Assembly: GCA_051382305.1 (NCBI GenBank)
Contig: JBBCAV010000326.1
Coordinates: 1-10,273, forward strand
Direction: 5' to 3'
Length of the DNA: 10,273 nucleotides
Source: Bdellovibrionota bacterium FG-2
GTDB lineage: Bacteria; Bdellovibrionota; UBA1018
Shown here: positions 66 to 10,273 of the stretch, piece after piece
Numbering within the stretch: position 1 is the stretch's first letter
Layout of the letters: every line of letters starts with the position of its first letter
Notes under the pieces: model-generated
Database searches by the model: none
Seen by the model: the letters and a program-made list of their open reading frames with translations, nothing else
What the model was told of the DNA's origin: nothing
Made by a program: the position numbers and the translations under genes

Positions 66-1364
66 ATGAGTGGGTTCGAGGCTGCAGATTCGGACAAAGT
101 CGTTAGAAATATTTTAGATCTTCTATCCGAAATCGAGTTAGGGAATTTTTCTAAAAAAATTGGAGATGCCGAGGACTACGGCATTTTTGCCCCAGTTATT
201 GCAAAGCTCAATTCATTTGTTCATTCCCAGGAAATGAATGGCATTTTTCGCGGCATTATCATGTCGACACAAGACTCCATTCTCATGATGGATTCGGATG
301 GGCGAATCACATATTGGAATCCCGCTGCCGAGAAGTTGTTCGGCTACACAAAGGCCGAGGCCGTGGGGAACAATTTGCATACCTTGCTAGTGCCCGCAAA
401 GTATCATGCTTCCTTTGAAGGGGCCTTTCCGAACTTCTTGTTAACAGGGCAGGGGGGGCTAATTGGAAAAACGATTGAAGTCGCTGCCTTGCACAAAAAG
501 GGGCATGAGATTCAAGTTGAACTTTCCTTATCCGCAGTTCGCATGAATGACTCTTGGCACTCTGTCGGGATCATTCGCGATTTGACCGAGCGCAAGGCGC
601 AAAAAGTAATGATCGAAAGCCAACAGTCGAATTTGATGAGTACGCAAGAGCAGCTTTTTCAGACTTTGAAGCTTGCGACTTTAGGTGAAATGGCTGCGGG
701 GATGGCCCATGAGATGAATCAGCCTTTGTCTGGGATTATGCTAGCTGCCCAAATGATTAAAAAGCTAAAAGAGAAGAATTTGCTGACTGACGAAGAATTA
801 AAAGAAAATTTGGGCAAAATTCAACAAAGTGTAGAGCGATGCACTAAAGTGATCGAGCACGTTCGGACGTTTTCTCGGCAGGAAAAGCCAAAATTCAGCG
901 ATGTAGCCGTCAATGAAACCCGCGAATCTGCCCTGATTCTGCTGGGTGAGCAGCTCAGACTTCGCGGCATCGAGGTTGTTAGAACTCTTGATGTTGCACT
1001 CCCGAAAATTCAGGGAGACCTTCATCAACTCGAGCAGATCTGGATCAATCTGCTTACGAATTCTCGGGATGCGCTTGCGGATCGAGGTGGACAGGGAAAG
1101 CAGATCACGATTAAAACTAAGGTCAACTTTGGAAACATTCTTGTAGAGATTGCGGATAATGGAGTTGGGATGTCTCCTGAGGTTCTGGAAAAAGTGTTTG
1201 AGCCCTTTTTTACGACCAAGCCTCCTGGAAAAGGCACGGGCCTGGGGATGTCGATTATTCATGGGATCGTCGAAGCGCATCGTGCAATCATCGAAGTTAA
1301 GAGTGAGCCTCAAAAGGGGACGACGGTAACTGTGGGGTTTCCCTGTGGCGAGGAAGGCGGTTGA
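66..1364 (+). CDS. Cytoplasmic PAS-domain sensor histidine kinase (HisKA + HATPase_c, FixL/NtrB/DctB-like H box); class A1 core
   Basis: 432-aa ORF with GGGGA SD-like motif near 52-57. PAS motif [24 protein letters not shown]...[10 protein letters not shown] box AHEMNQP (CAT 708-710); N box [14 protein letters not shown]1 DNGVG; F box FEPFFTTK; G2 GTGLG. No hydrophobic TM stretch. Confidence 0.95.
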
Positions 1365-1373
1365 GGAAGTTCA

Positions 1374-2513
1374 ATGAATAATTCAAAAATCTTGGTCATC
1401 GATGATGAGGAGACCATTCGCGAAGGGCTGGCGAAGCTTTTGAAACTTGATGGATATGAAGTGCTCACCGCCGTGGATGGTCCGCATGGTCTTGAGGCTT
1501 TTGATCGATTTGATCCGAATATTGTGCTTACGGATATCAAGATGCCCCACATGGATGGGATAGAGGTTCTTAAAAGAATTAGGGAAAAATCCCAACAAAC
1601 CGGCGTGATTTTAATCACGGGCCATGGAGACCGCGACTTGGCCATCAGAGCTTTGCGGGATGGGGCGTTTGATTTTTTTAACAAGCCGGTCGACTTTGAT
1701 AAGTTAAGTCACTTGATCAAACGCAAACTTGAGGCGCAGGAGCTTGATCGAGAGCGGGAACGTCTACAGGTTCAATTGTTTCAATCTTCTAAGCTTGCAA
1801 CTATTGGGACATTGGCGGGGGGCGTGGCCTATGAGCTTAATAGCCCATTGGCGGTGGTCGTGGCTTACGTTGACGAGGTCCGGGCTATGATCGAGGATCG
1901 ACAGGTTGGATCGAAGAAGGTAGAGGAACTCGCTGCAAATCTTGGGATGATTGGCAAATCAGCTGCTCGTATGCAGGCGATTGTCAAACACCTGCTGACT
2001 TATTCACGTCAATCAGATGCTTTGGATTTTCGCGATATCAATCTGAATGATGCCATTAGTAACGCGTTCATGTTTTTTCACAAAAGCTTTCAAAAAGGGA
2101 TGATTTCGGAGGTGTTTTCATTAGCTGAAGATCTGCCTCACGTTTGGGGGGATTTAGGAAAACTTGAAAGTGTCTTTGTGAGCCTCTTTACCAACAGTCG
2201 TGACGCGTTTGAGACGATTACGGACAAGCGTGAGAAGTGTGTTACGATTTCGACCTCGCGCCATTCAAATGGTGGAGTGATGGTCGTCTATAAAGACAAC
2301 GCAGGCGGCATGAGCGCTGAAATCGTGCAGAAAATTTTTGAACCTTTTCTTGGTACCAAGAAAGCGGGAAAAGGGGCCGGTGTCGGAATGGCTGTGACCA
2401 ATGGGGTGGTCGGGGCGCACAAAGGGACAATCGCGCTTGAGAGCGAAATGGGTCAGGGTACTCAATTCACGCTGACTTTTCCCGCCTATCAGCAAGGGGG
2501 CACCAGTGAGTAA
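1374..2513 (+). CDS. N-terminal receiver fused to a degenerate histidine kinase (His->Tyr; candidate pseudokinase); class B core
   Basis: 379 aa with GAGGA SD at 1363-1367. Intact REC (IDDE, LTDIKMP, ITGHG, FNKP). H box reads AYELNSP (TAT 1830-1832); N box SLFTNSRDA; F/G2 region EPFLGTKKAGKGAGVG. Confidence 0.92.
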   Translation: MNNSKILVIDDEETIREGLAKLLKLDGYEVLTAVDGPHGLEAFDRFDPNIVLTDIKMPHMDGIEVLKRIREKSQQTGVILITGHGDRDLAIRALRDGAFDFFNKPVDFDKLSHLIKRKLEAQELDRERERLQVQLFQSSKLATIGTLAGGVAYELNSPLAVVVAYVDEVRAMIEDRQVGSKKVEELAANLGMIGKSAARMQAIVKHLLTYSRQSDALDFRDINLNDAISNAFMFFHKSFQKGMISEVFSLAEDLPHVWGDLGKLESVFVSLFTNSRDAFETITDKREKCVTISTSRHSNGGVMVVYKDNAGGMSAEIVQKIFEPFLGTKKAGKGAGVGMAVTNGVVGAHKGTIALESEMGQGTQFTLTFPAYQQGGTSE

Positions 2514-3678
2514 GATTCTAGTGATCGATGATGAGGAAATGATTCGCGATCTTCTGGCTGAGATTCTGGGATTGGATGGTCACGAAATTCTGAAAGCAGA
2601 GGACGGTGAAGAAGGGGTCAGGATTTGCGGGGAGGCTGAGCCGGATGTGGTGATTTCGGATCTCACTATGCCCAAGATGGGCGGGCTGGAGGTTCTAAAA
2701 AGAATCAAGGAAAACGCCCTTGCAAACGGCCAAAGTGGACCCGGCGTGATTTTATTGACCGGCCAGGGAGACTCCGCAACAATCGTTGAAGCCCTGCGCC
2801 TTGGGGCTTTTGATTTTGCCAGCAAACCGGTTGATTTTGACAAACTTTGGGTTTCGATTAGGCGTATTCTAGAACTTCAAACTGCTGAGCGGGAACGAGA
2901 GCGATTGAAAGGGCAATTGTACCACTCCGCAAAACAAGCCTCTGTGGGGACGCTCGCGGCCGGAATTGCTCACGAGTTGAACAATCCGCTAGCGGTGGTC
3001 GTAGCGTATGTGGAACAGTTTTTGGCAGCTCTTAAAGAACCGCTATCGGGACCGCGGGATAATGGCAAAAGTGCAACGATGGCGCCCGATAAACTCGAGG
3101 AGATCGAGGGATATCTGAGCATGATCGCTAAGTCTACGACGCGTATGAATTTGATAGTCAATAATTTATTGGCCTATGCGCATCAATCCGAGTCCACGGT
3201 TTGGCGTGAGGTAGATGTCAATGAAGTGATAAGAAGTTCGCTTTTGTTTTTAAAAGGGAGCTTCGAAAAAAATCACATCGCCTCGCCTTTTGTTCTGGGC
3301 AGTGACTTGCCGCCCGTTTGGGGAGATACGGGACAGCTTGAGAGTGTTTTTACGAATCTTATGGCCAACTCACGTGATGCATTCGAAACCGTTAAGGACG
3401 ATCGTGAGAAGCAAGTAACACTTTCGTCTGCTCGCTCGGCAAAGGGTGACGTGCTTATTGTCTATGAAGACAATGCGGGTGGAATGACCGCCGAGACCTT
3501 GCAAAGAGTTTTTGATCCTTTCTTTACGACGAAAGAAGTCGGAAAAGGGACGGGCTTGGGGATGTCCGTGACCTTTGGTGTAGTTGAAAACCACAAGGGC
3601 ACAATCTCAGTTGAAAGTGAATTTGGAAAAGGAACTAAGTTTACGCTGACCTTTCCGGCCTGTCAGGCGAAGAACTAA
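2506..3678 (+). CDS. Hybrid REC-histidine kinase; class B core
   Basis: GTG start overlaps the previous stop (GTGAGTAA, 2506-2513). REC (IDDE, ISDLTMP, LTGQG, ASKP); H box AHELNNP (CAC 2971-2973); N box NLMANSRDA; DNAGG; FDPFFTTK; GTGLG. Confidence 0.95.
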   Translation: MSKILVIDDEEMIRDLLAEILGLDGHEILKAEDGEEGVRICGEAEPDVVISDLTMPKMGGLEVLKRIKENALANGQSGPGVILLTGQGDSATIVEALRLGAFDFASKPVDFDKLWVSIRRILELQTAERERERLKGQLYHSAKQASVGTLAAGIAHELNNPLAVVVAYVEQFLAALKEPLSGPRDNGKSATMAPDKLEEIEGYLSMIAKSTTRMNLIVNNLLAYAHQSESTVWREVDVNEVIRSSLLFLKGSFEKNHIASPFVLGSDLPPVWGDTGQLESVFTNLMANSRDAFETVKDDREKQVTLSSARSAKGDVLIVYEDNAGGMTAETLQRVFDPFFTTKEVGKGTGLGMSVTFGVVENHKGTISVESEFGKGTKFTLTFPACQAKN

Positions 3679-3791: not shown

Positions 3792-4899
3792 GTGAACAGT
3801 GATTCTCAAGATCGGACTGACAGCGAATTCAATCGAAGTATTGTCGAATCCCTGAGCGATATGTTGCTAGTCCTAAATCTTGATGGAACGATCAAGAAGG
3901 TGAATCGTTGGGTTGTAAAAACTTAAGTTCGCGGAAAGCGAGCTTATTGGTAAACCCGTTTATGAAATCGCTGACGGTTTGAAGACGAGATTCATGGCCG
4001 TCGACGCGGTAGAGCGCATTGTAGCAATGCTGCCAGAGTACAAAGAAGAAAATTTTCATACCAAGGATGGGGATCGAGTTCCCGTGCTTTTGTCTCACTC
4101 GGTATTTCATGATGACAAAAATGAAGTCAGCGGCGTCGTTTGGTTGGCCAGAGATATCTCTGAGTTGAAGTCGTCTACGGCTCAGCTCGTTCAGATGGAT
4201 AAACTCAGTGCCATGGGGGAGCTGACTGCCGGGGTGGCTCATGAACTCAATCAGCCGCTAAACGGCATCAAGTTGATCGCGCAAGGCCTGCGTCGGGATC
4301 TGGAGAAGAAGCGGTTCAGTGAAGCGACGCTAGGAGAGGAGATTGCGAGCATAATTCTCCAAGTGGATAAAATGTCAGAAATCATCACCCATATGCGGAT
4401 TTTCACGCGAAAAAGCGACGGCCCGATCACCGACTTGATTAGTCTCAATGATCCTATCACGGGGGTCTTTAAGCTATTTGGAAAACAAATTGAAACGCAC
4501 GGGATCGGTGTCACGATCGAGCTTCAGCCTGATCTACCGAAAATCAGAGGTGACGCCATTCGAATTGAGCAGGTGTTGTTGAACCTTATCGGGAACGCTC
4601 GAAATATTCTGGAGACTTCTAAGAAGCAAGGCGCGAAAATCTGCGTGAAAACCTTAACAAGCGCCGATGGCAAGAGTGTGGAAGCCTGGGTAGTCGATAA
4701 TGGGCCAGGGATCTTGGAGCGGAACAAGAAGAAGATGTTTGAGCCCTTCTTTACCACCATGGCCCCAGGCAAAGGGACAGGTTTAGGATTGAGTGTCTCA
4801 AAAAAGATTGTTGAGGAGCATGGGGGCGCGATCACTTTTGTGACTAAAGAGGGTGAGGGCACGACTTTTAAAGTGGTGCTTCCGGTGGCTATAGTATGA
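3792..4899 (+). CDS. PAS-domain sensor histidine kinase, class A2 core, frameshifted at about 3917-3926 (sequencing error or pseudogene); about 369 aa if repaired
   Basis: GTG 3792 frame reads MNSDSQDRTDSEFNRSIVESLSDMLLVLNLDGTIKKVNRWVVKT* (TAA 3924-3926), which is the first half of a PAS domain. The frame of the 3979-4899 ORF is open from 3919 and reads KLKFAESELIGKPVYEI..., the PAS continuation. Downstream: HELNQP (CAT 4240-4242), NLIGNAR, DNGPG, FEPFFTT, GTGLG. Confidence 0.88.
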
Positions 4900-4927: not shown

Positions 4928-6148
4928 ATGAGAAGAGTTTTGCTGATCGAAGATGATGAAACGGCCCGAACCACGTTAGGCAAGGTTCTTAGTAAAGAGG
5001 GCTTTGACGTCAGCGTTGCGGTAGACGGCAAAGAGGGACTCGAGAAGTTTCAAAAGGATTTTCCTAGTATCGTGATCACGGATTTACGGATGCCCAATGT
5101 TGATGGCATGGAGGTGTTGCGGAGGATCAAGCAACGCTCTCGCGATACCGAAGTGATTGTGATCTCAGGCCATGGCGACTATGACGTCGCCATTGACGCC
5201 TTACGTGCGGGTGCGACGGATTATCTCAAAAAACCAGTCAATTTAGATGATCTTCTTCTTGCGGTTGAGTGTTGCGTGGAGAGAATCGCCAAAAGAACGG
5301 CTGTGGTAGTGAAACCGGTCGTTCTTGTCATTGAGGATGAGGAGCAGGCAAGAGATCTTTTGTGTGAGCAAATGACCAAGGAAGGCTGGACCGTGCTCGC
5401 TGCCGGAGATGGCGAGGAGGGAATGAAGATTTTCGGAGAGCAACGCATTGATGTAGTACTTACGGACATCAGGCTTCCTAAAAAGGACGGAATGACTTTT
5501 CTTGAGGAAGTAAAAGCCGGAAATGAATGCGAAGTGATCGTGATGTCCGGCCACGGGGATGAGGCGACAACCATCAAGGCAATGCGACTAGGCGCTAATA
5601 ACTTCATCCGAAAACCTCTGGATTTGGATCATGTGTTGATCTCTGTTGAACGGGCATTTGAGAAACTGCAGTTAAAGCGGGCCAATCGCTTTCGTGCCCG
5701 AGAGGTGGAGCTCGCTAATCAGATCATTGCTAAAATCTCGGGTGGTGCGCATTCGGTGGACTTTGAAAAGTTGGAAAAAGTGGAAAAACTGGAAAAGGTG
5801 CAATCCATTGATCTTCTTTCCGTTAAAAACCTATTCGATTCTACTGCTATTGCCTGTCTGCTTGTCGGGAAGGATATGGAGATCGCCTATGGCAATCCTC
5901 AATCCGTCGCGGTATTGGGCGGGAAGCCCACGAGTTTTGGAATTTCAGAATTGCTGGCGCTTTCCGGCGCGTCTTTAGATGAAGATGCAGCCAAAGTCAT
6001 CATCGGTAACGTTCAAAAAATTGTGGGCGTTCCCTCAGTTTTAAAAGCTATCCATGTGGGAAGGGCTTCGACAATGGTTGTCCTTTCCGTTTCTATTCCT
6101 GATCTGGTAGCCGTCTTTTTTAGGCCTTCAAATGGAGCTATTGTGTAA
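4928..6148 (+). CDS. Tandem-receiver (REC-REC) response regulator with helical linker and unassigned, possibly PAS-like C-terminal domain
   Basis: 406 aa with AAGGA SD at 4916-4920. REC1 (IEDDE, ITDLRMP, ISGHG, LKKP) and REC2 (IEDEE, LTDIRLP, MSGHG, IRKP). The C-terminal LFDSTAIACLLVGKDMEIAYGNPQSVAVLG resembles a PAS N-terminal half. No HTH or enzymatic output recognised. Confidence 0.9.
   Translation: MRRVLLIEDDETARTTLGKVLSKEGFDVSVAVDGKEGLEKFQKDFPSIVITDLRMPNVDGMEVLRRIKQRSRDTEVIVISGHGDYDVAIDALRAGATDYLKKPVNLDDLLLAVECCVERIAKRTAVVVKPVVLVIEDEEQARDLLCEQMTKEGWTVLAAGDGEEGMKIFGEQRIDVVLTDIRLPKKDGMTFLEEVKAGNECEVIVMSGHGDEATTIKAMRLGANNFIRKPLDLDHVLISVERAFEKLQLKRANRFRAREVELANQIIAKISGGAHSVDFEKLEKVEKLEKVQSIDLLSVKNLFDSTAIACLLVGKDMEIAYGNPQSVAVLGGKPTSFGISELLALSGASLDEDAAKVIIGNVQKIVGVPSVLKAIHVGRASTMVVLSVSIPDLVAVFFRPSNGAIV
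5765..5800 (+). repeat. In-frame 9-nt tandem repeat x4 encoding EKL-EKV-EKL-EKV
   Basis: GAAAAGTTG GAAAAAGTG GAAAAACTG GAAAAGGTG read directly from the sequence. Confidence 0.85.
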
Positions 6149-7781
6149 TGGCTGAAAATATTCTTGTGGTCGACGACGACCCAATGGTTTTAGAGTATCT
6201 GTCAGCAGAGTTGAAGAGGCACTTTTTTAACCCGATTTGCGTAGGGACGGGCGCCGAAGCTTTGGCGCGACTTCCCGAAGCCCAAATTGTTTTCTTGGAT
6301 CTAAAACTTCCTGATATGGACGGGGTCGATATTTTGATCAAAATCAAAGAGCGAAACGCGACTAATCCTCATGTCGAAACTATTGTGATCACGGGTTTCG
6401 GAAACCAGGAAATCGCTATTCGTGCCTTGCGTCTTGGCGCTATTGACTATATTGAAAAGCCGATTCAACTCGAAGAGCTCCGGGCGGCCCTTGGGCGGGC
6501 GCAGGAGGTCCTCTCAAAAAAAACGAATCTTACCGCGATCGATACGATTCTCGTAATTGATGACGAAATCGAAATAGCGGAAAAAATCCGGAGTATCCTG
6601 AAAAAGAAGGTTATCAGGCGTTTTGTTGCCCCAGTGGTCGCGAAGGGCTTGATATTATTTCAAGACAGAAGGTCGACGTTGTGCTCACGGATATCAACAT
6701 GAAGGAGATGAGTGGGCTTGAAGTCTTGAGGCAGGCTAAGCTGCTCTACCCTGATATTGAAGTGATCATGACGACGGGCTTTGGAGGACATGAACTCGCC
6801 GTTCAGAGTCTACGGGCCGGGGCTTTGGATTATCTGCCGAAGCCTGTTAATCTAGACCAGCTTTTGTGGTCGGTTCAAAAGGCGACGGAGAAAATTAGGC
6901 TTTATCGGAGCTCCCTGTATCGGAACCGAGAGCTAAAACTTTCGTCTGAAATCATGGCCAAGATGAACGAAGAGCAAGAGAAGATCATTGCGGAACGAAC
7001 AGCGAAGTTGACCCAGACGCAGGCGAGTCTCATTCAGACTTCAAAATTGGCGACCTTAGGAGAGATGTCTGCTGGGATGGCGCATGAGTTGAATCAACCG
7101 CTCGGTGGGATTTCGCTTGTTTCGCAGACAATGCGAAAACTAAAAAGCAGAAACCTTTTGACGGACGAGGAGCTGGATAAATCGCTCAAAGATATCGATA
7201 CCTGTGTCAAGCGCATGACCAAAATCATCCAGCACGTGCGTACATTTGCAAGGCAGGAGAATCTGAAGTTCACTGAGGTGGATGTGAATGAGACGATCGA
7301 GTCGGCAATCATGCTGCTCGGGGAGCAGCTCCGAATTCACGGAATCGAGCTAACTAAGACTTTCGGGGCTGCGCTGCCTAAGATCGTCGGCGAACCCTAT
7401 CAGTTAGAGCAAGTTTGGATTAATCTGATCACGAACTCGAGAGACGCACTTGATGAGATGGGTGCTAAGCACCAAGCAGAAAAAACTGAGTTTACGAAGA
7501 AGCTCTCTCTTCGCACGTGGTTTGAGGAAACTGAGTTAAGGGTAGAGGTCATCGACAATGGGATTGGGATGACTCAGGACCAATTAGAAAAAGTTTTTCA
7601 ACCCTTCTATACTACGAAGCCTGTTGGAAAGGGGATGGGTCTAGGGATGTCAATTACTTACGGTATTCTTGAAGCCCATAAAGGGAAAATTGAAATTCAC
7701 AGCGAAAAAGGCAAAGGGACCACGATTCTTGTCAAACTGCCGGTGGCATTAAAGAATGAAACAAAGAATGGTGTAATCTGA
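6148..7781 (+). CDS. REC-REC-histidine kinase, class A1 core, frameshifted at the A5 run 6601-6605; about 544 aa if repaired
   Basis: Start coupled to the previous stop (TAATG). Frame 1 gives REC1 and the start of REC2 (ILVIDDEIEIAEKIRSILK). The -1 frame from 6603 continues KEGYQAFCCPSGREGLDIISRQKVDVVLTDINMK into the 6681-7781 ORF, which has HELNQP (CAT 7083-7085), NLITNSRDA, DNGIG, FQPFYTTK and GMGLG. One extra A restores LKKEGY. Confidence 0.9.
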
Positions 7782-8905
7782 TGCAGACGCACAAAATTCT
7801 TTTGATTGATGACGAGGAGATCATTCGTGAGCGAATTTCGAAACTGCTGATTTTGGATGGCTATGAAGTCATCACCGCAGAGGACGGTCGCCTAGGGCTT
7901 GAGAGCTTCGAGAAGAACTCGCCAGATGTGGTGGTGTCGGATATTAAAATGCCCCACATGGATGGGATTGAAGTCCTTCGAAAGATCAAAGAAAAATCCC
8001 TCGATGCGGGCGTGATTCTACTCACAGGACATGGAGATATGGAGTCCACGATCGAAGCCTTGAGAATCGGGGCTTTTGATTATCTTAGTAAGCCTGTCGA
8101 ATATGAGGAACTTGCGATATCAATCAGGCGTCTGCTGGATCTTCAGTCAATGGAGAAGGACCGCAAGGTGCTTCAGTCTCAACTCTTTCAGTCCGCTAAA
8201 CTTGCATCCGTGGGGACATTGGCAGCCGGAATTGCCCATGAATTAAATAATCCTCTGGCGGTGGTTGTGGCCTATGTTGAGGAGGTCCTGAATTTATTGA
8301 AGGCGCCTCCTTTTGATACGCCGAAGGTTGAGGAGATGACAAAGTTTCTCGAAATGATCGGCAAGTCCTCCGCGCGCATGCAGACGATTGTCAAGCATAT
8401 GTTGGCCTATTCTCGGCAATCGAGTTCGCCCGAAGGGCGGGCAATTGATATCAATGATGTGATCAATAACTCGTTTCTATTTGTGAAACGCGACTACGAA
8501 AAGTTCGATATTGCAGCCGCCTTTGAACTCGCCAGCGGAATCCCTCAAGTTTGGGGCGATTCGGGGCAATTTGAGAGCGTCTTTGTGAATCTCATGGGGA
8601 ACTCGCGCGATGCTTTTGGAACTCTTAAAGATGACCGCAAAAAGAGTGTGAGGGTGTCCTCTTCCGTTCATGAGGACGGGGGGGTGTTAATTGTTTATGA
8701 AGACAACGCCGGTGGAATGAGTGCCGAAACAGTACAAAGGATCTTTGACCCTTTTTACACCACTAAAGAAGTCGGCAAGGGCACAGGCTTAGGGATGTCT
8801 GTAACCTTAGGCATTATCGAGAATGCCAAGGGGACGATCACGGTTCAAAGTGATCTGGGCAAGGGTTCAAAGTTCACGCTCAAATTTCCAGGGCACAAGC
8901 CATGA
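7781..8905 (+). CDS. Hybrid REC-histidine kinase; class B core with intact catalytic motifs
   Basis: 374 aa, TGATG coupling. REC (IDDE, VSDIKMP, LTGHG, LSKP); HELNNP (CAT 8237-8239); NLMGNSRDA; DNAGG; FDPFYTTK; GTGLG. Confidence 0.95.
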   Translation: MQTHKILLIDDEEIIRERISKLLILDGYEVITAEDGRLGLESFEKNSPDVVVSDIKMPHMDGIEVLRKIKEKSLDAGVILLTGHGDMESTIEALRIGAFDYLSKPVEYEELAISIRRLLDLQSMEKDRKVLQSQLFQSAKLASVGTLAAGIAHELNNPLAVVVAYVEEVLNLLKAPPFDTPKVEEMTKFLEMIGKSSARMQTIVKHMLAYSRQSSSPEGRAIDINDVINNSFLFVKRDYEKFDIAAAFELASGIPQVWGDSGQFESVFVNLMGNSRDAFGTLKDDRKKSVRVSSSVHEDGGVLIVYEDNAGGMSAETVQRIFDPFYTTKEVGKGTGLGMSVTLGIIENAKGTITVQSDLGKGSKFTLKFPGHKP

Positions 8906-10169
8906 TGAAATGGCTGTCCAATCTCCCTTTGTCTAAAAAGTTGAATTCGATCATCATCATGTTTTTGGTGGGCACGCTTGCGATGGCGGGCCTCAGCACG
9001 TTGGGGATGAAAGTGCTCTCGGGCACGAGGGCCTTTGTCGGCGCCGAAGGACAATGGGCGAAAGCGCAAAAAGAAGCCGTATATTCTCTTTATAGTTATG
9101 TCTCAACTCACGACGAGAGGTGGTATCGGCGCTTTCAAGAATTTTTGAAAGTACCAAACGGGATGGAAGTGTTTCGTGTGGAGATGGAGAAACCCGACCC
9201 CGATATGAAAGTGGCTCTTAACGGCTTGATTGCGGGGCACAACGCCCCTGAAGATTTTGATGACATGGCCAATTTGTTTAGACGGTTTCGTGGTTTTGGC
9301 CACATCGATAAGGCAATCCACATCTGGGCCGATGCGGATCTTGCGATAGACGAACTCGAGAGCCTTTCCGGACGTCTGTACACTCACCACGTTACTCACA
9401 AGTCGCACCTCGATGCCGAGGATCAAAAAGAGGAAGCTTTGCTTTCGAGTCAGATTCACACCGTAAATGATAGACTCATTGAGCATGAGAATAACTTCTC
9501 CCGAACTCTGGGTGAAGCCTCGCGGTGGGCCAAAGGTGTTCTTTTGGCCGGAATTCTTTTGTGTATGGCTCTTGTCGCGGCTTTTGGTTTTCTTTTTTTA
9601 CGTCTAATCATCAAAGATCTCACTCATAGAACTCGAATTCTTGTGCAGGGCATGGAAGCCGTGGCAAAGGGCGAGCATAATCTAAGATGTGACGACAGCG
9701 CAAAAGATGAGATCGGTGTTGCCGCGGCTTCTTTTAACAAAATGACTGCAAAGTTGCAGGAAACAACCGTTTATCTGGTTCAATCAGAAAAACTCAACGC
9801 GTTGGGGGAGCTCACCGCCAGCATCTCTCACGAACTCAAGAACCCTTGAACATTATCCAGATCATCTCGCAGGGGCTGGAAATGGATATCAAGAAGAACC
9901 GACTAAAAGAAGATGAACTCAAGACAGGCCTATCAGACGTACGGGTGCAGATCGCTCGAATGTCCGAAATTATCGAACATATGCGGCTTTTCACGCGGCG
10001 AGCGGAATTTGCCATGGAGAAGCACAATGTGAATGCGGTAATCGAGCAGACATGTAAGTTTTTTACCCAACAACTTACCAACCGCAGCATTGAATTGACA
10101 AAAACTCTTGAGACGGATCTCCCTTCTTCTATGCTTGATCCGATTCAACTTGAGCAGGTGGTGATCAAT
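8902..10169 (+). pseudogene. Membrane sensor histidine kinase (TM-extracytoplasmic domain-TM-HAMP-HisKA), class A2 core, with an H-box frameshift at about 9841-9849 and HATPase domain interrupted at the N box
   Basis: ATGA coupling. TM1 IIIMFLVGTLAMAGL; TM2 VLLAGILLCMALVAAFGFLFL; HAMP ...MEAVAKGEHNLR...DEIGVAAASFNKM. SHELKNP (CAC 9829-9831) is followed by TGA, while the -1 frame continues LNIIQIISQGL...LEQVVIN. Kinase homology ends at AAT 10167-10169 and the frame stops at 10211. Confidence 0.82.
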
Positions 10170-10273
10170 CCGGCGCCGCTCACCAAAAAGGACCCACTTG
10201 CGCTCAGTTAAAGGGACCCACCCAGGACTTAGCCGCGTAGCATAGTCGCAAAAAACCCCACTGCAGCACGAAG
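10170..10273. mobile_element. Probable end of an inserted element (IS21-family-like terminal region), running off the window
   Basis: Kinase homology is lost abruptly in the middle of the N box and is followed within 8 nt by two 21-nt direct repeats. Tandem transposase-binding repeats are typical of IS21 ends. No transposase is in the window and there is no terminal TG dinucleotide at the junction. Confidence 0.55.
10177..10221 (+). repeat. Two imperfect 21-nt direct repeats, 24-nt period
   Basis: CGCTCACCAAAAAGGACCCAC (10177-10197) and CGCTCAGTTAAAGGGACCCAC (10201-10221); 17/21 identical. Confidence 0.9.

Follow-up and report, generated by a model that had tools for sequence, protein, structure and literature searches.

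A tyrosine-bearing relative of the Rec-controlled histidine kinases, a probable pseudokinase, in a kinase gene cluster of uncultured Oligoflexia

The stretch of DNA analyzed here (the window, 10,273 nucleotides (nt)) is one whole contig (G000:C326) from the genome of Bdellovibrionota bacterium FG-2, which is 85% complete and assembled in 433 contigs. The gene in question, called Y, lies at positions 1374 to 2513 of the forward (+) strand in a cluster of seven kinase-type genes. It encodes a relative of the Rec-controlled histidine kinases (abbreviated Rec-HKs) in which the phospho-accepting His is replaced by Tyr. The initial annotation of this DNA had proposed that Y is a DivL-like pseudokinase with an intact receiver, located next to two active paralogs. 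These paralogs are called B and C in the following. Their catalytic motifs are indeed intact, and it is from the motifs that their activity is predicted. The features of Y are as follows.

1374..2513, + strand: gene Y, with domain order REC (receiver), alphaS linker, DHp and CA, and with Tyr for the phospho-accepting His (open reading frame (ORF) and translation, Pfam, full-length match to LvrB 8vc9, AlphaFold2 (AF2) model).
1374..1733, + strand: receiver domain of Y, residues 1-120, with D10, D11, D54, T82 and K104 intact (Pfam Response_reg, E 2.7e-31).
1734..2018, + strand: alphaS linker and DHp helical hairpin of Y, residues 121-215 (AF2 helices; omega, the dN/dS ratio, 0.064 against genome G001).
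1827..1847, + strand: H box AYELNSP of Y; Tyr153 (TAT, 1830-1832) is the phospho-acceptor position and Ser157 is position H+4 (sequence, LvrB alignment).
2019..2510, + strand: CA (HATPase_c) domain of Y, with Asn274, Asp308 and GxGxG retained (Pfam HATPase_c, E 2.4e-16).
2337-2393, + strand: ATP lid of Y, residues 322-340, degenerate as is the F box (comparison of Y lineages).

The ORF codes for 379 amino acids (aa) and has no internal stop. Pfam detects no PAS domain in Y; the N-terminus is the receiver. The HisKA domain of Y scores 22.7 bits, which is below the cut-off of 26.9 bits, whereas B (2506-3678) and C (7781-8905) reach 40.4 and 42.1 bits. The identity of Y is 55% with B and 56% with C. 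The spacing between the KP motif of the receiver and the H/Y position is the same in all three proteins.

The closest protein chain in the PDB by sequence is LvrB (8vc9, E 4.4e-32, Y residues 13-373). Tyr153 of Y aligns with His161 of LvrB, and Gly145 aligns with the pivot Gly153. The AF2 model of Y, which was computed from an alignment of 32 sequences, has a mean pLDDT (predicted local distance difference test) of 79.9. It contains the receiver, a single helix (108-174), a second helix (180-212) and an alpha/beta CA domain; lid residues 330-337 have a pLDDT below 50. A Foldseek search with this model returned six LvrB chains on top (E 5e-26 to 6e-25, the first over 386 columns), followed by HK853; DivL (4q20) came at rank 10.

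LvrB of pathogenic Leptospira is the prototype of the Rec-HKs (PMC13269768; here and below, published work is cited from excerpts of the papers). Phosphorylation of its receiver results in a coiled coil of alphaS and frees the CA domain to phosphorylate His161 (PMC13269768). Y resembles LvrB in the order REC-alphaS-DHp-CA, in its length (379 versus 382 aa) and in the conserved receiver Asp and pivot Gly. The difference is that His161 of LvrB corresponds to a Tyr in Y and that the ATP lid of Y is degenerate. The NCBIfam model of LvrB aligns with Y end to end, but the score of 144 bits is far under the cut-off of 500 bits; Y is therefore not an LvrB ortholog despite the same architecture. Two hallmarks of the Rec-HKs are present in Y, namely an N-terminal receiver with its catalytic residues and, in the AF2 model, a continuous alphaS helix that runs into DHp helix 1. 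A third hallmark, the phospho-accepting His in the HisKA H box, is absent. Judged by its sequence, Y is by descent a relative of the Rec-controlled kinases but probably not a kinase member of this group. A search of the open-access literature, the supplement of the LvrB paper aside, found no His-less Rec-controlled kinase; it did find DivL, PsmA and ChrS.

The data confirm the Tyr that the initial annotation had read at 1830-1832. The H box is AYELNSP in Y and AHELNNP in both B and C. The same Tyr is present in all three orthologs of Y, which come from the window genome, from G001 (same genus) and from G018 (a different genus); the respective codons are TAT, TAT and TAC. The H boxes of the other Tyr proteins read AYEFNSP in G001, GYELNSP in G018 and AYELNSP in P0002, a protein from a further assembly that is one residue apart from the G001 protein. 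The ORFs are intact in the three genomes (378-387 aa), and the five catalytic positions of the receiver are kept in 3/3 orthologs, in agreement with the description of a full-length gene with a canonical receiver.

A Tyr at this position is an exception among the DHp domains scanned. A six-frame scan of the window genome with a DHp profile of the subfamily found His in 25 of 26 DHp domains and Tyr only in Y. The pool of homologs comprised 263 proteins, 259 with and four without a DHp match, from a word-index search (120 listed) and an HMMER search of 1.84 billion representatives with P0001 (150 listed, the best of 52,693 matches at E ≤ 1e-30; representatives clustered at 50%). Among these best homologs the 274 DHp domains have His in 270 cases, Tyr in three (P0001, P0002 and P0005, the last being the G018 ortholog) and Arg in one (P0121). 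None of the five proteins at E ≤ 1e-80 from a word-index search with P0005 was a further Tyr member; Tyr members lower in the homolog list or inside the 50% clusters could remain.

The initial annotation had also suggested a read pile-up at this codon, which was possible only in part. A search of sequencing runs returned one holder of the window, in the form of contigs and probably from the source sample; these contigs match the window without differences, although they are no independent evidence. One contig piece of this run begins at 1828, two bases ahead of the Tyr codon. No RNA run holding the window was listed in this search. The orthologs are more informative with respect to the possibility that the Tyr is an artefact (a C-to-T error at 1830) or that Y is a duplicate drifting to loss. 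The low word depth of the run contig (about 5-6), three indels that break neighboring genes in the window and the faster evolution of Y relative to B and C would fit such an explanation. However, the Tyr occurs with two codons in independently assembled genomes of two genera, and the other DHp domains of the same assembly keep their His. Together with the intact ORFs and the selection on Y (see below), this makes artefact or decay highly improbable. Tyr153 is neither a read error nor a chance event.

The test for purifying selection that had been proposed could be made with G001. The comparison of Y with its G001 ortholog yields an omega of 0.135 (Nei-Gojobori; dN 0.087, dS 0.643), with a bootstrap 95% confidence interval (CI) of 0.092-0.186 and a maximum of 0.212 in 1000 replicates. 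Y is thus under purifying selection and is not simply decaying. The corresponding values are 0.080 for B (95% CI 0.054-0.115) and 0.043 for C (0.026-0.065); among the six other cluster genes that were compared with G001, the lowest value is 0.038 and the highest 0.139. The most constrained part of Y comprises the alphaS linker and the DHp domain (omega 0.064), compared with 0.175 for REC and 0.144 for CA. The CA domain has an omega of 0.051 in both B and C. Of the marks of a histidine pseudokinase, Y shows a lost phospho-acceptor in a gene under purifying selection, with intact ORFs in three genomes and a single Tyr clade.

The residues that Y keeps and loses were compared with a reference set, defined as the residues common to at least 10 of the 11 His-bearing paralogs. 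With respect to this set, the Tyr proteins have four fixed changes and no more: V144I, H153Y, Q263K and D323E. The three Y proteins all keep 34 of 38 conserved sites in REC, 23 of 34 in alphaS and DHp, and 34 of 55 in CA. The losses in the CA domain cluster in the F box and the ATP lid (residues 325-340), and they are lineage-specific: PFLGTKKAGKGAGVGM, PFCASKISAKGTGVGM and PLSSVNDEGKGVESGM. The window copy has N274, D308 and GxGxG and the F box PFLGTK. In the G018 protein, the Mg-binding Asn (N274Y), the second glycine-rich motif (G2; G336E) and the F box are lost. The ATP lid of Y has apparently been free to decay.

These losses bear on the idea that Y is still a phosphodonor, which either autophosphorylates Tyr153 or another residue, or uses its CA domain to phosphorylate a partner's His in trans. 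The retention of Asn274, Asp308, Lys329 and GxGxG in the window and G001 copies is in line with this idea, and the title of PDB entry 4q20 still reads 'tyrosine kinase (DivL)'. However, since G018 lost N274, G336 and the F box, catalysis is not what the Y clade conserves. Furthermore, there is no other His in helix alpha1 of Y after the H box, and in the excerpt of the DivL paper DivL has no autokinase activity in vitro and functions without the need of a phosphorylated DHp domain (PMC4211667). We regard a phosphodonor role as very unlikely.

The initial annotation had pointed to several further changes at catalytic sites. All of them are in the sequence (Ser157 at H+4, Ser270 at the first N-box Asn (AGC, 2181-2183), the F box PFLGTK and G2 as GAGVG), but two of the five differences, counting the H box, are not specific for a pseudokinase. 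This became evident from a fourth full-length paralog, D, on contig G000:C282, which is 47% identical and has the H box AHEFNSS. Ser at H+4 occurs in the His-bearing D proteins of the window genome (HEFNSS) and of G001 (HEINSP), and D paralogs likewise have Ser or Ala instead of the first Asn of the N box. Because D is His-bearing and has both changes, neither of them is a mark of catalytic decay. The gene upstream of D (L004:1902-3077) is also Rec-HK-like. It was considered as another His-less protein and ruled out, since it keeps the His (AHEINNP).

Y shares the helix-1 surface of the DHp domain with the paralogs. The segment PLAVVVAYV, which follows the H box in helix 1, is common to Y, B and C, as had been stated for LAVVVAYV in the initial annotation, and in DHp helix 2 there is hardly any difference between Y and C. 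The codons for PLAVVVAYV differ between the paralogs. This rules out a recent gene conversion as the origin of the identity and means that it has been kept by selection.

The constrained DHp domain of Y leaves room for a different function. Y could be a transmitter that is dead as a kinase but competent as a phosphatase, and serve as a receiver-gated off-switch acting on a receiver that B and C phosphorylate or on the receivers of B and C themselves. The precedent is the H371A mutant of CrdS, which retains most of the phosphatase activity; CrdA~P has a half-life of 2.6 min with the mutant, 0.7 min with the wild type and 53.5 min without CrdS (PMC3510030). The phosphatase activity hinges on an Asn or Thr at H+4 (PMC3510030), and Y has Glu154 and a hydroxyl residue, Ser157, at H+4 in all three orthologs. 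The low omega of the DHp domain is also in line with this function, and RetS acts on GacS by transmitter phosphatase activity (PMC5992135). On the other hand, the CrdS variants N375A, N375Q and N375D are dead and N375T is only partly active, and Ser is not among the substitutions reported in the excerpt (PMC3510030). In PleC the mutation H610A abolishes both activities (PMC3510030). The phosphatase activity of EnvZ and of HK853 is stimulated by nucleotide and the ATP lid (PMC7005713), and the G018 protein has lost the lid and the Mg-binding Asn. DivL, with the same Tyr, is described as having no phosphatase activity (PMC4211667). We consider a phosphatase function unlikely, albeit worth keeping in mind.

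In a maximum likelihood tree of 23 Rec-HK proteins (379 columns), all three Tyr proteins group together as a clade (support 100/100). The tree keeps clades B (100/98) and C (99/97) apart from it but gives no firm branching order for Y, B, C and D. The Tyr proteins form a single clade within an otherwise His-bearing family, which indicates that the exchange of His for Tyr arose once, in an old paralog. The distribution over two genera suggests from the sequences that Tyr replaced His before these genera diverged. Between the window and G018 proteins the tree branches add up to 0.88 in Y, 0.71 in B and 0.50 in C. The Y gene has the highest rate of the three, yet it is retained.

The tree also clarifies the relationship with DivL of Caulobacter crescentus. 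The view that the Tyr evolved independently is upheld: Y is nested in a His-bearing REC-DHp-CA family and matches LvrB (E 4.4e-32) much better than DivL (4q20, E 4.8e-15). Since Y is nested among His-bearing Rec-HKs of Oligoflexia, its Tyr is independent of that of DivL. The two proteins have much in common. Both have a Tyr at the acceptor position with a Pro at +5, and the Tyr is conserved across orthologs in both. Both retain the histidine kinase fold and the DHp docking face, and the nucleotide site of the CA domain is weakened in DivL and apparently also in Y. DivL binds DivK~P on its DHp docking face and is described as having no kinase or phosphatase activity and weak nucleotide binding (PMC4211667). 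The mutation Y550H impairs the function of DivL and leaves the binding of DivK~P unchanged (PMC4211667). What DivL does depends on its binding to a phosphorylated receiver, without phosphotransfer; this is also the model that we propose for Y. The differences concern the input and the origin. DivL is an alphaproteobacterial protein with N-terminal PAS domains, no receiver, and DivK and CckA as partners. Y comes from Oligoflexia, and its proposed input is phosphorylation of its own receiver. In terms of the DivL family, Y has the conserved acceptor Tyr but neither the N-terminus with multiple PAS domains nor DivL orthology. Y represents a second, independent DivL-type replacement of His by Tyr that is maintained by selection.

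The genes of the window are all on the + strand, in the order PAS kinase, Y, B, PAS kinase, REC-REC protein, REC-REC kinase, C, HAMP kinase. The genes around Y are as follows.

66..1364, + strand: PAS sensor kinase with H box AHEMNQP, which stops 9 nt 5' of Y; a putative upstream kinase acting on the Y, B and C receivers (Pfam: PAS, HisKA, HATPase_c).
2506..3678, + strand: paralog B, a His-bearing Rec-HK (AHELNNP) with a GTG start (Pfam; clade support 100/98).
3979-4899, + strand: 3' part of a PAS kinase (ORF list, G001 comparison).
4928..6148, + strand: REC-REC protein, a candidate downstream receiver of the cluster (two Pfam Response_reg stretches; conserved in G001, G018 and G019).
6148-7781, + strand: REC-REC kinase, split in the window (G001/G018 comparison).
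7781..8905, + strand: paralog C, a His-bearing Rec-HK (AHELNNP) (Pfam; omega 0.043).
From 8902, + strand: HAMP kinase (ORF list, Pfam).

Three of the kinase genes are interrupted in the window. The PAS kinase 3' of B is a single ORF of 369 aa in G001. In the window it is split, with 2 bp missing beside an A-run near 3915; it extends from about 3793, where a GTG is the probable start codon, to 4899. In G001 and G018 the REC-REC kinase is a single ORF (548 and 550 aa, respectively). The window has two ORFs instead, 6148-6702 and 6681-7781, owing to a 1-bp deletion beside an A-run near 6600; the assembly may be wrong here, or the frameshift may be genuine. The HAMP kinase (8902-10273; 528 aa in G001) has a 1-bp deletion near 9845 within the codons of its H box. 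The last ~100 nt of the contig (10175-10273) are unrelated to G001 and could be a chimeric end or an insertion. All three small deletions lie beside A-runs and urge caution with respect to the assembly, but not with respect to the Tyr, which is confirmed by the orthologs.

The REC-REC protein at 4928-6148 is the only non-kinase receiver protein in the cluster and a candidate output; its C-terminal ~150 aa have no Pfam or NCBIfam match. No LvrC-like Rec/anti-sigma partner was seen in the window. Scans of the window for promoters and terminators remained at chance level (9 found versus 10.5 expected, and 15 versus 10.5). A module of three genes adjoins the kinase cluster in G001 (L020:10812-13615) and G018 (L021:230-3185); in the window genome the same module is on a separate contig, C389. 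Its proteins have 409-411 aa with an archaeal-actin MreB-like C-terminal domain (E 1.8e-7), 173-177 aa and 330-372 aa; the last two have no Pfam match. In G018 a Fic/DUF4172 gene (L021:3356-4474) separates the actin-like module from the Y ortholog; G001 and the window have the PAS kinase in this place.

The PAS kinase is followed by Y in G001 as in the window, and the start of B overlaps the end of Y in all three genomes, by 8 nt in the window and by 4 nt each in G001 and G018. This arrangement is consistent with the hypothesis that Y hetero-oligomerizes with B (or C) via the DHp domain and blocks or tunes the autophosphorylation of its partner, as RetS does with GacS. The structure of the DHp heterocomplex of RetS and GacS has been solved (PMC8498467). 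The DHp domains of the cluster do not support such a complex, however: the base and the loop of the hairpin are strongly divergent among Y, B and C, and B has an insert of 11 residues in the loop. This region reportedly sets dimer specificity in other kinases, according to work on EnvZ and RstB.

A third genus, represented by G019, is also relevant to this hypothesis. G019 has no Tyr gene. The place after the PAS kinase is taken by a protein of 576 aa (L022:7980-9710, identical to P0121), whose parts are, from the N-terminus on, two canonical receivers with a short helical stub between them, a DHp domain and an intact-looking CA domain. Its H box is VRELGDP, with Arg for His. The C-terminal part falls in clade B (100/98). 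The N-terminal receiver groups with the Y clade with a support of 76/83.8, which is under the support mark of the tree tool; topology tests do not reject a grouping with clade C (approximately unbiased test, p-AU 0.17) and weakly reject one with clade B (p 0.035). The sequences give a hint of a Y-like origin of this receiver, and the protein looks like a Y-like receiver fused to a B-type paralog. The fusion of a putative Y-type receiver ahead of a B-type protein speaks for an association of Y and B, with the reservation that clade C is not rejected for this receiver. However, the B-type part in G019 is itself His-less, and there no B kinase remains to be regulated. We therefore hold hetero-oligomerization with B or C to be a rather improbable explanation of Y.

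Each of the four cluster-bearing genomes encodes exactly one His-less protein of this type, i.e. the Tyr protein in three of them and the Arg fusion in G019. The His was lost twice, independently, in this small family. Because the B-type kinase in G019 is itself dead, the conserved item looks to be a dead receiver-bearing member of the network and not a regulator of B in particular.

With the 15-26 best candidates scored per genome, 4 of 75 genomes in the taxonomic family have these paralogs, the window genome included. Without it the count is 3 of 74, and the genera with the paralogs are 3 of 48; at the level of the class the count is 4 of 127 genomes. The RpoB proteins of G001, G019 and G018 are 97%, 88% and 85% identical to that of the window genome. 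Several genera that are equally near or nearer are without the cluster, e.g. G003 (89% RpoB identity, 94% complete). The distribution of the cluster is therefore patchy, which suggests repeated loss or transfer within the family.

Other systems show how a protein of this kind may work. RetS of Pseudomonas aeruginosa acts on GacS in three ways: it serves as a sink for phosphate, has transmitter phosphatase activity and blocks autophosphorylation in a DHp-DHp complex (PMC5992135, PMC8498467). Like RetS, and by analogy only, Y would be a receiver-bearing protein of the kinase family that dampens a sister kinase without autophosphorylation of its own. Both belong to a multikinase network, which in the case of Y is the cluster of seven kinase-type genes. 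RetS is not closely related to Y; it is a membrane hybrid kinase whose receivers are at the C-terminus. PsmA of Streptomyces venezuelae is a conserved histidine pseudokinase without the His of the H box (PMC12963549). The residue at this position of PsmA varies by species (Glu, Asp, Gln, Val or Tyr; PMC12963549), whereas Tyr is fixed in Y. The H box of PsmA is described as being without the E/DxxT/N motif (PMC12963549), while Y keeps the rest of its H box. PsmA also has a hybrid architecture and binds DivIVA (PMC12963549).

Y is very probably a conserved non-kinase member of the Rec-HK family. With Tyr153 in the place of the His, Y is predicted to be unable to autophosphorylate at the canonical site; we infer the lack of autokinase activity from the missing His only. 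The full explanation that we favor, and which seems to us somewhat more probable than not, goes further: Y is a conserved, receiver-gated Rec-controlled histidine pseudokinase of an LvrB-type family, independent of DivL. The mechanism is drawn by analogy with LvrB, DivL and RetS. The sensor kinases of the cluster, of PAS and HAMP types, would phosphorylate the receiver of Y as they would those of B and C. An LvrB-type rearrangement of alphaS, DHp and CA would then alter what the DHp and CA domains of Y expose. This rearrangement could not finish in the phosphorylation of a His, and the output would be binding. The receiver of Y would drain phosphoryl groups as a sink, and its DHp docking surface, the same as in B and C, would hold or read the receiver served by B and C, depending on the phosphorylation state of Y. 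In this way Y probably regulates its sister kinases by binding and not by phosphate transfer. The specific proposal that its main mode is that of a sink combined with a decoy or reader of a receiver common to B and C is plausible but remains tentative.

Several observations weigh against a receiver-gated pseudokinase. The constraint on Y is weaker than that on C (bootstrap P = 1.0) and probably also than that on B (P = 0.965); this fits a changed function but also a partial relaxation. The omega of Y comes from a single pair with a dS of 0.64, and the clade consists of three species-level genomes in two genera. The window copy retains the Mg-binding Asn274, Asp308 of the first glycine-rich motif (G1), Lys329 and the GxGxG of G2, so that Y may still bind nucleotide. 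At H+4, Y has a Ser, which is similar to the Thr that sustains phosphatase activity; for this reason Y could have a catalytic role as a phosphatase. Three small deletions break neighboring kinase genes, which means that either the assembly is imperfect or the cluster is decaying in the window genome. Finally, Y is known from the sequences of metagenome-assembled genomes of uncultured bacteria.

The occurrence of one His-less protein per cluster allows for a more far-reaching speculation, which is doubtful at present. The cluster may need exactly one His-less Rec-HK, a state that would have been reached twice, by His to Tyr in two genera and by His to Arg in the B-type fusion. This protein could then be an obligatory, receiver-switched allosteric partner of the live kinases, and the strict conservation of the Tyr, which DivL shares, could point to a specific role of its hydroxyl group in reading phospho-aspartate. 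If this is true, the dead subunit would be a bacterial counterpart of the eukaryotic pairs of pseudokinase and kinase.

Few histidine pseudokinases are known, e.g. DivL and PsmA, and their working mode is only partly understood. What distinguishes Y is the replacement of His by Tyr within an architecture whose input is its own phosphorylatable receiver and whose activation mechanism has just been solved for LvrB. As the hosts are uncultured, tests on Y would need heterologous expression. Y offers a comparative test of whether Tyr is specifically required or whether any non-phosphorylatable residue will do, and of how a receiver-driven conformational switch can be reused for binding once catalysis is gone. 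With its seven kinase-type genes and, in each of four genomes, exactly one dead member, the conserved cluster is a small, naturally occurring case of a multikinase network.

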